DNA of 64,000 nucleotides from assembly GCF_055900595.2 (NCBI RefSeq), contig NZ_CM148325.1; one strand, written 5' to 3'. The notes under the pieces were generated by a model, which was given only the letters and a program-made list of their open reading frames with translations, was not told the origin of the DNA and searched no databases. The position numbers and the translations under genes were made by a program. Shown here piece after piece: positions 2,932-9,021 of the stretch (its first letter is position 1; every line of letters starts with the position of its first letter).

Positions 2932-2982
2932 TTGAGTTTTCTAATCAAAACACTTGACCAATTTTCATGAGAAAACTAAATT
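2932..2982 (+). promoter_or_regulatory. Candidate PL-like promoter with operator (OL-like)
   Basis: TTGAGTTTTCT at 2932-2942 repeats the OR motif; -35 TTGACC 2954-2959, 17-bp spacer, -10 TAAATT 2977-2982; inverted repeat AGTTTTCT (2935-2942) / AGAAAACT (2970-2977). Confidence 0.35.
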
Positions 2983-3063
2983 ACCATCCATCAAGACACC
3001 GCACGGTGTTCTCAGCAAACAGTTCCGCTACCCCGGCGTTAAGGGGAAACAGAGGATTTCTCA

Positions 3064-3420
3064 GTGGGCGAAGTCAAACATCAGAATGGAAGGCATCCCG
3101 GGATCGGCAAAGAAGCAGCAATGGCGCTTTATATTGACATCAGCGCCATTGCCGGACAGGTAAGAATTATCAGAGCGGTAACTAAGCGGTATGTGCCTTT
3201 ACTTCAGAAAGGCTCCGGTGATTACACCGAAGATATTGTCAACGATTTCCTCATCGAATTGCGAGGACTCATCTTCAGTTACAAGGTGACCACAATTTTT
3301 GCAGATGGCTCCCGCGAAACTGTCAGAGCCCTGCGGCTTAAAGGATGTGTCGAAGACTTCGCCACCACATTCTGGGCAAGAAAACTTGATTGTATTCATA
3401 ACCAATTTCCTCTCGGGTAA
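3064..3420 (+). CDS. Hypothetical protein, first ORF downstream of candidate PL (N-gene position); mutually exclusive with the antisense ORF 3199-3399
   Basis: GTG start with AGAGGA RBS 7 nt upstream; 118 aa; orientation fits the rightward early operon; no recognisable family. Confidence 0.35.
   Translation: MGEVKHQNGRHPGIGKEAAMALYIDISAIAGQVRIIRAVTKRYVPLLQKGSGDYTEDIVNDFLIELRGLIFSYKVTTIFADGSRETVRALRLKGCVEDFATTFWARKLDCIHNQFPLG
3199..3399 (-). CDS. Small zinc-ribbon protein (CPECGG...CKNCGH), candidate moron; mutually exclusive with 3064-3420
   Basis: ATG at 3399 with AGAGGA RBS 8 nt upstream; two CxxC pairs 17 residues apart; 66 aa. Confidence 0.4.
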   Translation of the reverse strand: MNTIKFSCPECGGEVFDTSFKPQGSDSFAGAICKNCGHLVTEDESSQFDEEIVDNIFGVITGAFLK

Positions 3421-4016
3421 CAGACCCCTCAGAGGATACCACCTCGCCTGACGTGGTTAAAAGCAGGCACACAACACGAAAGCGCACGGCGAGGTAGCTG
3501 GTTCATATATAGCCTGTCGTTAAATTTTCGTCGACCGTGCGCTTCCGGTTGTGGCACTCCGCGAAATGGCGCGGCGGTAAGCATGGCGGGGTTCCCTTCC
3601 CCTTGAGGACACCGGGTTGTCAGGTTGACCATGCGCCTGAGTGACAACCCCGCTGCAACGCCCTCTGTTATCAATTTTCTGGTGACGTTTGGCGGTATCA
3701 GTTTTACTCCGTGACTGCTCTGCCGCCCTTTTTAAAGTGAATTTTGTGATGTGGTGAATGCGGCTCAGCGCACGCGGAACAGTTAAAACCAAAAACAGAG
3801 TTATGGGTGGATTCTCTGTATCCGGCGTTAATTGTTAACTGGTTAACGTCACCTGGAGGCACCTGGCACCGCATCAACAAAGTTCACTTCGGTGATGAAA
3901 GGTAAGAGAAAATGTTGAATGTAGCTATTGAAAACCAGTACGGGTGGAATTATAGTGCACCTGCACCTCATAAAACGGGTGCCGGGCGTGGAAACCCGAA
4001 AGTTACTCGAGCGCAT

Positions 4017-4039
4017 AACCGCGCCGAAGCGGTTTTTTT
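4017..4039 (+). terminator. Candidate rho-independent terminator upstream of the Rha gene
   Basis: AACCGC-GCCGAA-GCGGTT hairpin followed by TTTTT. Confidence 0.4.
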
Positions 4040-4208
4040 ATGCGTAATGCACAGCCACATTCAGATAATGGTGGGGCGTGCAGGGCAGCTGCAAGGCTGG
4101 CCGGGTTCTCGAGTGACCGGTATTTCCACCCCTGTACGTCTCGCCACCCTTATGGTCGTGGAAAGCCTCGGTGGTGAGTTAATTAACTTAACACTTGAGG
4201 ATGCCATC

Positions 4209-4760
4209 ATGGCTACTACCCTTACCCTTTCTCACCCTGACGTAACCATTGAAAATGGTCGCGCTGTCACTACGTCTATTGCGATCGCAGAATTCTTCGG
4301 CAAGCAGCATCACCATGTTGTTCAAAAAATAGAGGCCCTCGAATGTTCTGAACGCTTTTTAACCAGCAACTTTTCGCGGGTTAAATTCGAGCACCGTGGC
4401 AATACCTACAATGCCTACCAAATCACCAAAAACGGCTTCGTTTTCCTGGTGATGGGCTTCACCGGCAAAAAGGCCGCTGCATTCAAGGAAGCCTACATTG
4501 CCGAGTTCGACCGCATGGAGGAAGAACTGCGCCGGAATAACACCACACCCGCTGACAAAATAATCCCGGGTGATGGCCGCACCCTGGTTATCCGCTTCGA
4601 CGAACACGGCTACATCAAATTCACCGAAACCGTTCCTGATGGCGCACTGGTCTGTACTCTGGATACTTTCCGTTTTTATCTGGAAAAGCAGGGATGGACT
4701 CTCATAAACCGGGGCGCAATTAAAAATATGACCGTCGAGCAGTTGCTGAGTATTAAATAG
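4209..4760 (+). CDS. Phage regulatory protein, Rha family (antirepressor-like)
   Basis: N-terminus TTSIAIAEFFGKQHHHVVQKI matches Rha-domain signature; GAGGA RBS before ATG 4209; in-frame ORF is open upstream to 3912, so the start is uncertain. Confidence 0.6.
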   Translation: MATTLTLSHPDVTIENGRAVTTSIAIAEFFGKQHHHVVQKIEALECSERFLTSNFSRVKFEHRGNTYNAYQITKNGFVFLVMGFTGKKAAAFKEAYIAEFDRMEEELRRNNTTPADKIIPGDGRTLVIRFDEHGYIKFTETVPDGALVCTLDTFRFYLEKQGWTLINRGAIKNMTVEQLLSIK

Positions 4761-4805
4761 TTTTCTGGAATTTCCTTCATATCACAAATTATTAAGGAGA
4801 TTATT

Positions 4806-5027
4806 ATGATTGCTCATCACTTCGGAACCGATGAAATACCACGCCAGTGCGTCACTCCCGGCGATTACGTTATTTACGAAGGCCGGACATATGTTGCATC
4901 GGCAAACAATATCGAAAAGCAAAAACTTTATATCCGTGATTTCACTACAAAAACATGCATTACTGACCGCATGATTAAAGTCTTCCTCGGTCGTGATGGT
5001 TTACCTGTAAAGGCGGAGGCATGGTGA
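4806..5027 (+). CDS. Hypothetical small phage protein
   Basis: ATG preceded by AAGGAG at 7-nt spacing; 73 aa; no recognisable family. Confidence 0.55.
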
Positions 5028-5146: not shown

Positions 5147-7600
5147 ATGAGCACTGATAAAGAAACTTTTGCGCTATATTGCGAAGCTAAAAATGACAAA
5201 GTCAGAAAACGCCTTGGGATTAAAGGTGGTTTTTACTGGACTACAGCAAAAAAATTATCTGTTGCCATCTCCCGCTGCATTACCGCAATGGATGATAACG
5301 ATTATGATGAAGACGACTTTAAAAAACCTGTTCGCGTCCATTTGCCCGTTGTTGATGACCTTCCACCGGAAGGCGTGTTTGATACCGAATTCTGTAACCG
5401 GTATGAAAAAGGCGGCGAAGATGGCATCACAATGATATTTATCGCGCCTCCGCCATCCGCGCAGGACAAACCAGCCAGCACTGACAACACCAATGTTAAT
5501 GGCGAAGACATGACTGAGATTGAGGAGAATATGCTTCTGCCGGTTTCAGGTCAGATTCTGCCTGTTCGCTGGCTGGCGCAACACAGCGGCGAAAAACCAG
5601 TAACGCACGTTTCGCGGGATGAACTGCGCTCATTACATAACGCACAGGAAGAAAAACTTCCCGCCGTTACCGCGCTGGCCATCTCAAATAAAGCAGCGCA
5701 ACTCGAACCGCTGGAGATTCGGGATTTGTACAAACTGGTGCGGGACACTGACAAAGTTTTTCCCGCCCCCGTAAATTCAGACCTGGGACTGATGACCTCC
5801 TTCATCGAAGCATACCTGGACGCTGACTACACTGATCGTGGTCTGCTTACAAAAGAGTGGATGAAAGGAAATCGTGTTTCTCGCATCAGTCGCACACCAT
5901 CCGGCGCTAACGCTGGCGGCGGTATTCTTACCGATCGCGGCGAAGGTTTTGTGCATGATAATGCGTCAATGGCATTCGATGTTGCTACAGGAAAACTGGC
6001 TCGTTCGATGGATGTGGATATTTACAACATGCATCCTTCACATACCAGACGTGTTAACGAAATTATCGCAGAAAATGATCCCTGTTTCTCCGTCTTCCTT
6101 AAGGCTTTTCTGAACATGCCAGGCGGGATGGATTATTCCCGCGCCATCGTGGTTGCCTCCGTGAAAGAAGCACCGGTTGGTATAGAGGCTATGCCCCACC
6201 GCGTCACCGAATACCTGAATAAAGTGCTGACCGAAACCGATCATGCCAACCCTGATCCGGAAATCGTGGATATTGCCTGCGGTCGTTCCTCTGCCCCAAT
6301 GCCGCAGCGTGTAACAGAAGAAGGAAAACAGGATGATGAAGAAAAACCGCAACCGTCTGGCGCAATGGCAGATGAACAGCCAACGACTGAAACAGTGGAA
6401 CCGGATACAACTGAACATCATCCGGACACGCAGCCGCTGGATGCTCAGCCGCAGGTGAATTCTGTTGATGCGAAATATCAGAAACTGCGGGCAGAACTCC
6501 ATGAATCCCGGAAAAACATTCCGCCCCAAAATCCTGTCGACGAAGACAAATTGCTGGCAACCTCTGGCGGAGAATTTGCTGAAGGGATTAGCGACCCGAA
6601 TGATCCGAAATGGGTGAAGGGGATTGAAACCCGCGATTCTGTGAACCAGAACCAGCAAGAATCGGAACAGAACGACCAGAAAGCGGAAAAAAACAGCCAA
6701 AATGCGTTACAAAACGAGCCAGAAACGAAACAATCCGAACCAGTAGCGCAACAGGAACCGGAAAAAGTCTGCACCATCTGCGGTCAGAGCGGTGTCGGCA
6801 ACTGTCCTGATTGTGGCGTGGTGATGGGCGACGCAACATACCAGGAAATGTTCGATGAAGATAATCAGCCTGAAGTTCAGGAAAATGATCCAGAGGAAAT
6901 GGAAGGCTCTGCGCATCAGAACAAGGAGAACTCTGGCGGCAATCAGCATCATGCCAGCGATAGTGAAACTGGCGAGACGGCAAATCCCTTAATTAAGATA
7001 ACCAGTCATCACAAATATAAGTCCACAAGCAAAACGTGGTATCACCTGATGATCGACCTTGAAACAATGGGAACCAACACCAATGCACCCATAGTAGTTA
7101 TTGGTGCGGTTTTCTTCGACCCGGAAACAGGGGAAATCGGGCCGGTATTTTATATCGTTATCAGCCTGACTGACGCAATGAATACAGGGGCTGTTCCTGA
7201 TGGTGGCACCATCGAATGGTGGCTGAAGCAGTCCAGCGAAGCCAGAGCTGCCATTTTAACTGACCAGGTAAAAATGAAAGATGCCCTTTTGCGTTTTCGG
7301 GAATTCGTCAATGAACACTCTGATGAAAAATTCGTTCAGGTGTGGGGTAATGGCGCAACGTTCGATAACGCAATTTTGCGCACCTCATACGAACGTCTGG
7401 ACATCCCCTGTCCGTGGCATTACAGCAACGATCGTGATGTACGCACAATCGTTGAGATGGGGAAAATCACAGACTTCAATGCCAGAAGCGTAATTCCATT
7501 CGAAGGCGTGCGCCATAATGCTCTGGATGACGCTCTTCACCAGGCAAAATACGTAACAGCCGCTATACAAAAACTGATCCCGAATCAGGCTGATTTTTAA
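5147..7600 (+). CDS. Exonuclease: RecE (exonuclease VIII) N-terminal-region homolog fused to a C-terminal DnaQ-like DEDDh 3-prime-5-prime exonuclease domain
   Basis: 817 aa; middle region ([19 protein letters not shown]...[43 protein letters not shown]) matches the RecE N-terminal part as recalled; C-terminus has [15 protein letters not shown] and HNALDDA motifs; acidic linker with CTICG-x7-CPDCG zinc-ribbon-like motif. Confidence 0.75.
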
Positions 7601-7664: not shown

Positions 7665-7913
7665 ATGGCAAGACTTATTCTGCTCACTGAGTGGGCAAAA
7701 GAGGAATTCAGTGAACCGGTCCCTAGTCCGGGTACGTTAAGTAAATACGCTAAAGCCGGAATGATATTTCCTCTCCCCAAAAAAGTAGGAAGGCACTGGC
7801 GAGTGGATCCACGCGCTCGCTTTGTCGGAATGGTAAACAAGCCGGAGGTGATCGCCACAGATCACCCTGCTTTGAAGAGGATACTGGAAGATGGCGCGCC
7901 CGCGAAAATATAA
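7665..7913 (+). CDS. xis: Excisionase (lambda Xis-like)
   Basis: 82-aa ORF overlapping the int start; LTEW...IFPLPKKVGRHWRV resembles lambda Xis. Confidence 0.55.
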   Translation: MARLILLTEWAKEEFSEPVPSPGTLSKYAKAGMIFPLPKKVGRHWRVDPRARFVGMVNKPEVIATDHPALKRILEDGAPAKI

Positions 7914-9021
7914 AACCGATGTTCCGGGTTTATCTCCGTATTTTGACAAAAGAAATAACAAAGTTTACTGGCGTTACAGGCATCCCATCACAGGTAAAAA
8001 TCATGGACTCGGCAGTATTGACCAGAAACTGGCGGAAACCATTGCAGCAGAAGCGAACAGCCGTCTTGCCAGACAACAAATGGAGCAAATGCTCAGTCTG
8101 CAGGAGAAAATTATTAGTGATACCGGCGGCGCATCAACCGTTTCCATTTTTCTGAATAATTACAGAAAAATTCAACAGGAAAGATATGAGAACGGAGAGA
8201 TCAAACTCAGCACGCTGAAGCAAAAAGCGGCTCCTCTCAGGGTGTTTGATGAACGTTTTGGAGCCAGGCCGCTAGATGCCATAACCGTAAAAGATGTGGT
8301 ATCGGTGCTGGAAGAATACAAGGCAAAGGGACATAACAGAATGGGACAAATTTTCAGGAAGGTATTGATCGATGTTTTCCGGGAGGCTCAACAAACGGGT
8401 GATGTTCCGCCAGGCTTTAACCCGGCTGAATCGGCAAAAAAACCGCAAGTGCGGATATCAAGACAGCGACTGACTTTTGATGAGTGGATGATGATTTATA
8501 ACGCAGCGGAAAAGGATGGTTACTTTTTACAGCGCGGCATGCTGCTGGCACTGATGACGGGCCAGCGTCTTTCGGATATTTGCAAAATGCAGTTTTCGGA
8601 TATCCGGGATGGTTACCTTCATGTCGAACAGCAAAAAACAGGAGCCCGGATAGCCATTCCTCTGGCTCTGCGTTGCGACAAATTAAATCTTACCCTGGGT
8701 GACGTGGTGTCATCCTGTCGTGATTACATCCTTAGTCCGTGGTTATTGCACCATCATCACGCTAAGGGGATGGGTAAGCGCGGCGGGATGGTTAAACCAG
8801 CAACATTAACAGTCGCATTTAAAAAAGCCCGGGATTCTGTGGATTACAACTGGCGTGCTAATGGCACGCCACCCTCTTTCCATGAGCAAAGATCTTTATC
8901 AGAACGATTGTTCAGAGAACAGGGAATTGATACCAAAATTTTGCTGGGCCATTCGAATCAAAAAATGACCGATATTTACAACGACGCACGCGGTAAAGAG
9001 TGGAAAAAACTGGTTATTTGA
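7891..9021 (+). CDS. int: Tyrosine recombinase, lambda-family integrase
   Basis: 376 aa; conserved R...HxxR...Y catalytic region (GQRLSDICKMQFSDI, FHEQRSLSERLF, LLGHSNQKMTDIY) similar to lambda Int. Confidence 0.85.
   Translation: MARPRKYKTDVPGLSPYFDKRNNKVYWRYRHPITGKNHGLGSIDQKLAETIAAEANSRLARQQMEQMLSLQEKIISDTGGASTVSIFLNNYRKIQQERYENGEIKLSTLKQKAAPLRVFDERFGARPLDAITVKDVVSVLEEYKAKGHNRMGQIFRKVLIDVFREAQQTGDVPPGFNPAESAKKPQVRISRQRLTFDEWMMIYNAAEKDGYFLQRGMLLALMTGQRLSDICKMQFSDIRDGYLHVEQQKTGARIAIPLALRCDKLNLTLGDVVSSCRDYILSPWLLHHHHAKGMGKRGGMVKPATLTVAFKKARDSVDYNWRANGTPPSFHEQRSLSERLFREQGIDTKILLGHSNQKMTDIYNDARGKEWKKLVI

Follow-up and report, generated by a model that had tools for sequence, protein, structure and literature searches.

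A Predicted IsrK/C4-Type RNA Module Ahead of rha and kil in the Early-Left Operon of an Escherichia coli Lambdoid Prophage

The Genes at the Locus

This analysis concerns two adjacent plus-strand genes, rha and a 73-amino-acid (aa) open reading frame (ORF), at positions 4209-5027 of a 64,000-nucleotide stretch of DNA (hereafter the window; NCBI RefSeq assembly GCF_055900595.2, contig NZ_CM148325.1), together with the leader that precedes them. The window matches part of the RefSeq-annotated Escherichia coli strain Ch1 at 100% identity. On the best explanation of the locus as a whole, which is held with considerable confidence, it contains the early-left operon belonging to a lambdoid prophage of E. 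coli that has integrated beside ompW. The plus strand carries, in order, the gene for a DicA-like repressor, an early promoter, DicF, a leader of the dicB/kilR type, IsrK, a C4-type RNA, rha, kil, and the exonuclease, xis, and int genes; the other strand, divergent from the DicA-like repressor, bears Cro-like, YdaT, and replication genes. Parts of a 1.8-kb stretch of the locus are present in 4,675 of 5,426 complete E. coli genomes, and its full combination in 46.

A preliminary description, made from the letters alone, had placed both genes as early-operon cargo between a noncoding stretch and an exonuclease gene. The placement holds, as the two genes belong to an early-left operon of the pL/dicB type in which the repressor precedes them and exo-xis-int comes after, with the upstream RNA stretch on one side and the exonuclease on the other, and the Rha domain assigned to the first product is borne out by matches to Pfam PF09669 and TIGR02681. 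The word "noncoding", by contrast, has to be abandoned for a stretch in which DicF, IsrK, and a C4-type RNA all score above their Rfam gathering scores. Scans were made with Pfam, NCBIfam, PHROGs, Rfam (at gathering scores), PADLOC, and blastn, alongside the RefSeq annotation of the identical locus; comparisons between loci draw on a set of 80 related viral loci (L005-L084), and those of the leader on an alignment of 30 distinct leaders.

The rha gene (4209-4760, + strand; stop codon TAG at 4758-4760) encodes 183 aa behind a Shine-Dalgarno (SD) sequence, GAGGA, at 4197-4201. The Rha domain spans approximately residues 12-111, with Pfam Phage_pRha (PF09669) matching residues 21-105 (2.4e-26; 92.6 bits against a cutoff of 29.9) and TIGR02681 also matching (2.5e-25; 88.7 bits against 45.95), and the C-terminal domain of 70 residues corresponds to PHROG 25059, a family without assigned function. 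Across the related loci, the variable alignment columns are distributed over the three codon positions as 74/50/132 in rha and as 17/13/53 in kil; both genes evolve like coding sequence.

The 73-aa gene (4806-5027, + strand; stop codon at 5025-5027) has an SD sequence, AAGGAG (4794-4799), spaced six bases from the ATG, and this is the near-ideal ribosome-binding site (RBS) remarked on in the preliminary description. The same source had found no recognisable family and no basis on which to assign a function, and in this it was mistaken, since profile searches place the protein clearly in a described phage family: NCBIfam NF008465 ("FtsZ inhibitor protein") covers positions 1-73 of 73 at 5.8e-45 (151.2 bits against a cutoff of 92), and PHROG 294 ("Kil protein for bacterial septation inhibition") matches at 6e-34. 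Aligned with KilR (b1352) from the Rac prophage of K-12, the protein shows 88% identity and 97% similarity, and it keeps the 12-residue C-terminal tail of KilR with a single Ser-to-Ala change. By its sequence, then, the gene is kil, a Rac KilR orthologue of the KilR family of FtsZ/MreB inhibitors, and it is already known and already annotated: RefSeq labels it kil in E. coli Ch1, with a note on Rac Kil, and its close homologues bear the database name "killing protein KilR" and Pfam accession PF27398. The local copy of Pfam gave only noise matches because PF27398 is newer than that copy. All 14 distinct alleles among the kil homologues are intact at 73 aa. A sequence search of the PDB with Kil and Rha gave zero matches. 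RefSeq and many NCBI records call the product of kil (4806-5027; L001 7407-7628) "cell division protein FtsZ", which misnames a protein that inhibits FtsZ.

KilR has been reported to disrupt Z-rings when its dose is low and MreB when it is high, and its toxicity is suppressed by extra FtsZ and requires the 12-residue C-terminal tail (PMC12482147). A division-blocking activity of the present Kil would be expected by extension from that work on an 88%-identical protein, and the guess of "host takeover" in the preliminary description was well aimed as far as this division inhibitor is concerned.

The IsrK/C4 Module Upstream of rha

To judge from Rfam, the supposedly noncoding stretch carries three predicted RNA genes, all above gathering scores, of which IsrK and C4 stand immediately ahead of rha. 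An internal promoter resembling PisrK and the P4 PLE promoter (3928-3956, + strand; TTGAAA, a spacer of 17 bases, and TATAGT) agrees with the consensus at 10 of 12 positions and predicts a start at approximately 3963, the 5' end of IsrK. Both hexamers are conserved in the leader alignment, one sequence (L019) having TATAAT, and the position is that of the Gifsy-1 isrK promoter (PMC4825925). The IsrK/seqA-type RNA (3963-4039, + strand; Rfam RF01394, 67.2 bits against a gathering score of 50) bears sites b1 (3988-3994) and a1 (approximately 4003-4011) and ends in an intrinsic terminator at 4017-4039 that is conserved in the 30 distinct leaders; the Rfam c4-a1b1 model adds a weak match at 3950-4002. 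The C4/CI-type antisense RNA (4064-4151, + strand; Rfam RF01695, 73.8 bits against a gathering score of 45, E 4e-14) covers model positions 1-87 of 87. Its recognition loops a' (4105-4116) and b' (4123-4129) and its target sites b2 (4158-4164) and a2 (4192-4199), all on the + strand, were assigned from covariation, and a2 includes the GAG of the rha SD sequence. Overlapping C4 is a putatively coding ORF of 45 codons (4040-4177, + strand), the positional homologue of Gifsy-1 orf45, whose ATG and GGTGGTGA stop align with those in Gifsy-1; it shows no codon periodicity (variable columns 18/20/21). Gifsy-1 orf45 is translationally coupled to its downstream gene, and the start/stop context of the 45-codon ORF matches it.

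Across the distinct leaders, loop a' co-varies with both a1 in IsrK and a2, and loop b' co-varies with both b1, in the IsrK hairpin loop, and b2. At least 10 a-classes and 5 b-classes can be distinguished, in each of which the loop and both of its targets change together, and these occur in 17 combinations among loci L005-L084. Summed duplex energies average -23.3 kcal/mol (a) and -16.7 kcal/mol (b) in cognate combinations and -9.8 and -4.4 kcal/mol in non-cognate ones. This three-way covariation supports pairing of the C4 loops with the target sites. IsrK and C4 lie directly 5' of a Rha homologue in 78 of the 80 related viral loci; the gene after rha is kil in approximately 30 of the 80 and elsewhere, as in L046, dicB with a ydfD-like ORF, and the cassette therefore precedes a division inhibitor in the inspected loci. 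No Rfam match to isrJ, which was sought after rha as in Gifsy-1, was obtained. On this evidence rha holds the position of the regulated gene in a module of the P1 c4-ant, P4 CI-kil, or Gifsy-1 IsrK-AnrP type. The notion of accessory cargo is thereby upheld only in part: both genes are real and sit in the early operon, but rha is not free-standing, being placed directly behind the IsrK/C4 module.

The order of the elements suggests how such a module would operate. PisrK, which looks constitutive, would make IsrK, the bearer of decoy sites a1 and b1, and transcripts that read through would carry the C4-like RNA, whose loops a' and b' could pair with a2 and b2 just 5' of rha. In a lysogen, pairing at a2 over the SD sequence should block translation of rha, if the outcome is as in P1 and P4, and the Rho-dependent polarity of C4 control should also damp kil-exo-xis-int.

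The Long Open Frame and the Ash Domain

RefSeq annotates as one coding sequence a 282-aa "Ash-Rha" frame (3912-4760, + strand), the analogue of P4 eta, in which Pfam Phage_ASH matches residues 14-108. Its ATG at 3912 is located 16 bases 5' of the -35 hexamer at 3928, and its extension of 99 codons, in frame with rha, spans the promoter, IsrK, the terminator, and C4. Most databases likewise list proteins of 280-284 aa with PF10554 and PF09669; for some Salmonella homologues, the listed length is 183-185 aa.

The extension combines an open frame with an absence of protein-like evolution. In 27 leaders, stop-triplet sites number 0 in the long frame and 33 in the other two frames, for which P is approximately 1e-6 if the sites are taken as independent and frame-equal, an assumption that is only partly true, and approximately 1e-5 for the 28 polymorphic sites. 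The length differences that preserve the frame among aligned leaders are 3-base indels. Variable columns in the extension are nonetheless spread evenly over the codon positions (39/39/36, no codon periodicity), and the variable residues coincide with the co-varying RNA pairing sites. The long frame is held open by selection, without constraint as a protein. A reading of the 99-codon extension as a normal protein domain was ruled out by the codon-position statistics, and one of the long open frame as a chance shadow ORF by the distribution of stop sites; it is the rejection of both that leads to the analogy with P4 eta.

In P4 (locus L085, 8330-8521), the PF10554 match falls in the former "cI" ORF, precisely where the CI RNA lies, and the immunity factor of P4 is an RNA (PMC10111431). 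The P4 eta frame is homologous, and its last 65 codons constitute P4 kil, which begins MATTLTPSHPE where Rha begins MATTLTLSHPD, with 88.6% DNA identity over 44 bases that include the SD region; within the proteins the homology covers the first 10 codons. Transcripts from the internal constitutive promoter of P4 are terminated via CI/seqA interactions, Kil being translated on read-through only and eta from the upstream promoter only, with eta translation preventing termination (PMC10111431, citing Forti et al. 1999). By analogy, we infer that 4209-4760 acts as a C4-controlled short gene and 3912-4760 as an eta-like through-translation frame on derepressed early-promoter transcripts. Ribosomes starting at ATG 3912 on such transcripts would cross the RNA module, preventing termination and C4 control, and their read-through, if P4 eta is a fair guide, would bring rha, kil, and the recombination genes into expression.

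Since it is free of stops yet lacks codon periodicity, the "Ash domain" (PF10554) more resembles an RNA gene crossed by ribosomes than a protein domain that folds; one study of Stx phages handles Rha and Ash as protein domains without assigned function (PMC8951638). In some database ORFs, such as P0121 (474 aa) and P0123 (821 aa), a single open frame holds Ash-Rha-Ash-Rha or longer arrays, implying tandem C4-rha cassettes with no stops to interrupt read-through.

Relation to Known RNA Modules and Division-Inhibitor Operons

The immunity region of P4 has the same order as the window, namely an internal promoter, seqA/IsrK, CI/C4, a target at the SD sequence, and the first translated gene, and in both a long frame begins 5' of the promoter, crosses the RNAs, and is in frame with the downstream gene. 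The two differ in that the window has a 183-aa Rha where P4 has a 65-aa Kil, belongs to a lambdoid prophage rather than a satellite, and places the long frame behind a dicB-type leader, whereas in P4 this frame is coupled to the alpA/vis gene; downstream lie kil-exo-xis-int in the window and replication genes in P4.

The c4 system of phages P1 and P7 is arranged as a1 b1, c4, and a2 b2 at the ribosome-binding site, and its counterpart in P4 is seqA-CI-seqC. Like the window, the immI region of P1/P7 (c4, icd, ant) thus has a C4-family RNA with two loops, each with an upstream site and a site at the RBS. P1/P7 heteroimmunity comprises multiple specificity types, which the a- and b-classes of C4 described here recall. 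The window departs from P1/P7 in that the SD sequence covered by a2 belongs to rha and not to an icd gene, and in its setting within an early-left operon.

The isrK-orf45-anrP-isrJ region of Salmonella Gifsy-1 is homologous to the window in its promoter, IsrK, 45-codon ORF over a C4-like RNA (STnc1160), SD sequence, and ATG, and control of the downstream gene by IsrK has been shown experimentally in Gifsy-1 (PMC4825925). Unlike the window, Gifsy-1 has an AnrP that is unrelated to Rha, lacks a long in-frame ORF, and carries the locus after a Q antiterminator gene instead of in the early-left operon. With homologous leaders followed by unrelated proteins, the RNA module is kept and the protein cargo swapped at, or approximately 10 codons after, the start codon.

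The remainder of the operon resembles two K-12 prophages. Rac KilR shares with the window Kil its length of 73 aa, the tail needed for toxicity, and an early-left position upstream of a recE-like exonuclease, and the DNA is homologous from approximately 10 bases 5' of the kil ATG through the gene. In Rac, however, a dicF-like leader (the kilS region) abuts kilR, and ydaE, racC, full recE, and recT come after it, whereas the window has the IsrK-C4-rha cassette between leader and kil, no ydaE or racC, and a different C-terminal domain in the exonuclease. The dicB operon of Qin (dicA / ydfABC-dicF-dicB-ydfD) has, like the window, a DicA-type repressor, an early promoter region, DicF, and approximately 180 bases of leader, all of them 95-97% identical, and then a division inhibitor; IsrK-C4-rha-kil takes the place of dicB in the window, and related loci retain dicB and a ydfD-like ORF after rha. 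By blastn, no Qin-like DNA matching ydfA, ydfB, or ydfC was found in the window.

Function of Rha and Kil and Alternative Explanations

The Rha family (PF09669/TIGR02681, including rha of phage phi80 and of P22-like phages), to which the protein belongs by a full-length domain match above cutoffs, is widespread, with 8,561 cluster representatives and many partners, but its function is defined only loosely, and the Rha of the window adds a 70-residue C-terminal domain. An AlphaFold2 model (mean pLDDT 89) predicts an N-domain at residues 13-111, built as strand-strand, three helices, strand-strand, a helix, and a long helix, and a small C-domain at 118-183. Several PHROG families with a Rha domain are annotated as anti-repressor. 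The P1 gene at the position equivalent to rha is ant, which is of the antirepressor type. At the same position in Gifsy-1 stands anrP, annotated as anti-repressor-like (PMC4825925). Judged only by gene position and family annotations, Rha most likely acts in favour of the lytic cycle, as a regulator or antirepressor whose DNA-binding N-domain is winged-helix-like, and this is the weakest step of the argument. The paper on Ant of phi24B deals with a P22-Ant-type protein and is uninformative for Rha (PMC3064807). Rha as the E. coli homologue of AnrP was considered and ruled out (BLASTP E 5.9; ORF6N domain in AnrP versus Rha domain), only the RNA leader being homologous.

If the operon were expressed, Kil would block Z-ring formation and, at a higher dose, MreB-dependent elongation, and would thereby arrest division in early lytic development or under stress. 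DicF is full-length in the operon of kil, and dicB replaces kil in sister loci. With DicF and kil in one operon, one transcript could act against FtsZ twice, through its mRNA and through the protein itself.

Several observations weigh against the interpretation of rha and kil as genes under a P4-type RNA switch. That interpretation draws on genes and sequence; kilR in Rac is silenced by Rho/NusG without an IsrK/C4 module, and C4 polarity onto kil is putative. The long frame is broken by 1-base indels in 3 of the 30 leader variants, which may be sequencing errors or may mean that the frame is dispensable, and through-translation is not universal in this RNA family, because the Gifsy-1 frame 5' of anrP is closed after 9 codons. 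Further, Rha is unrelated to both Gifsy-1 AnrP and the 65-aa body of P4 Kil, and its function is therefore not transferable by homology, and the same Rha occurs beside different upstream repressors, which gives no support for a cognate repressor-antirepressor pair; of the distinct locus types listed, each with 3 kb of upstream flank, three hold the DicA-like repressor.

Of the alternatives, one that would dispense with the switch altogether takes rha to be a plain two-domain "Ash-Rha" protein of 282 aa and the Rfam matches to be incidental. The calls of 280-284 aa with PF10554 and PF09669 in RefSeq and most databases, together with the fact that the frame stays open, speak for it, but it is very improbable given that the extension varies at 39/39/36 against 74/50/132 in the Rha body, that its variable residues are the co-varying RNA sites, that it encloses a conserved promoter and intrinsic terminator, and that PF10554 falls on the CI RNA gene in P4; in addition, the SD sequence and ATG 4209 are conserved into P4 kil and Gifsy-1 anrP, and the calls for some Salmonella homologues are of 183-185 aa. 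Hardly any credence can be given to the idea that rha and kil are inert remnants of a decaying prophage, which a frameshifted replication gene nearby in the RefSeq annotation might suggest, for neither gene is disrupted, each has a good ribosome-binding site, and purifying selection acts on both across many loci, and the exonuclease, xis, and int are intact as well.

That Rha is a sequence-specific DNA-binding transcription factor, activating or repressing phage or host promoters, rather than a repressor-binding antirepressor, is a serious rival and a real, though not the favoured, possibility: hints from the fold and the lack of linkage to a single repressor type argue for it, while the antirepressor-type genes at the equivalent position (P1 ant and Gifsy-1 anrP) and the PHROG anti-repressor labels on Rha-domain families point the other way, and structural matches of Rha are not significant. 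Rather unlikely, in our estimate, is that Kil, and perhaps Rha, mainly serve the lysogen in anti-phage defence or stress tolerance, as accessory cargo, and not phage development. DicB, the positional alternative to Kil, protects against some phages, which counts in favour of such a benefit. Rac KilR, in turn, has been credited with survival of oxidative stress and nalidixic acid (PMC12482147; see also PMC5793797 and PMC3105296). Against this, the PADLOC defence models matched neither Rha, nor its 282-aa form, nor Kil, and kil is found in a repressor-controlled lytic operon and also in functional phages; the two kinds of role are, moreover, not mutually exclusive.

Implications

As first stated, the observation was of little importance, the small protein being a known, annotated, toxin-like division inhibitor and Rha proteins being ubiquitous, and rha itself is a fresh case of a known regulatory type, each element of which has a described counterpart. 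In the literature, no description was found of this assembly in lambdoid early-left operons or of its many specificity classes, nor of the Ash region as an RNA-gene frame that is held open yet unconstrained as protein. A broader proposal, the chances of which we consider even, is that many lambdoid prophages of E. coli and Salmonella have a P4-type RNA immunity cassette within their early-left operon, immediately before kil or dicB. Its components would be an internal promoter, IsrK/seqA as a decoy, an antisense RNA of the C4/CI type, an SD target, and an eta-like ORF that has to be translated through without being constrained as protein. The cassette would there constitute a second, RNA-based lock on rha, kil, and exo-xis-int, with a- and b-classes that insulate co-resident prophages or allow cross-talk, and PF10554 would be largely a translated RNA gene.

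The operon stacks three routes to division arrest (DicF on ftsZ mRNA, Kil on FtsZ/MreB, and DicB in sister loci), and a P1/P4-type antisense-RNA lock, in which many specificities evolve, would stand ahead of its later genes. Such a lock would bear on the silencing of toxic prophage genes in lysogens and on cross-talk in polylysogenic strains such as enterohaemorrhagic E. coli (EHEC). There is also a likely annotation problem, as "Ash-Rha" proteins are treated as ordinary although the Ash region holds a promoter, a terminator, and two RNA genes.

Neighbouring Features of the Early-Left Operon

Upstream, the DicA-like CI-type repressor gene (2411-2869, + strand; start at 2461 in RefSeq) matches NCBIfam NF007257 ("transcriptional repressor DicA") at 2.7e-71 as well as Pfam HTH_3. 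It is followed by a probable early promoter region of the dicB-operon type (2954-3049, + strand), to which this function may be ascribed from a promoter-like site at 2954-2982 and from 96.7% identity of 2989-3049 to the Qin dicA-ydfA intergenic region. DicF, the small RNA (sRNA) that acts as an antisense inhibitor of ftsZ mRNA (3677-3728, + strand; Rfam RF00039, 76.7 bits against a gathering score of 48, E 9e-17, full length), is almost identical to K-12 Qin dicF. Behind it, a three-way alignment defines a leader common to Qin dicF-dicB and Rac kilS-kilR (3729-3905, + strand; by blastn 94.7% identical to Qin and 79.5% to Rac). Identity to K-12 Qin (94.7% over 3459-3886) continues through dicF and the leader nearly to the dicB start and stops at approximately 3886, some 25 bases 5' of ATG 3912, which occupies the place of the dicB start in Qin and of the kilR start in Rac. 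From this leader homology and the position of ATG 3912, it follows that the IsrK-C4-rha cassette stands between a dicF-type leader and a division-inhibitor gene.

Downstream of kil, the exonuclease gene (5147-7600, + strand; 817 aa; Pfam PF06630 and PF16473) shows 78.6% DNA identity to part of Rac recE. The N-terminal region of its product is RecE-like, and at the C-terminus an Rv2179c-like DEDDh 3'-5' exonuclease domain takes the place of the RecE nuclease domain; no recT follows the gene. The excisionase (7665-7913, + strand) and integrase (7891-9021, + strand) genes are taken from the RefSeq annotation of the identical locus; ompW comes next and marks the end of the prophage.

Three smaller observations concern the leader and its surroundings. 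RefSeq records a "DicB, missing C-terminus" pseudogene at 3807-3881 (L001 6408-6482), a call that may be spurious because this segment is the conserved leader 5' of the Qin dicB start. From the 3' end of DicF on, 3723-3889 is homologous to K-12 Rac DNA downstream of the annotated kilS sRNA (L002 7406-7503) and upstream of kilR, and Rac and Qin thus have one common leader ahead of their division inhibitors. Finally, a 68-aa CxxC...CxxC protein (RefSeq "ECs_2282 family putative zinc-binding protein") is encoded on the minus strand at 3199-3405, in antisense orientation to the early operon and in the interval that separates the promoter region from DicF.

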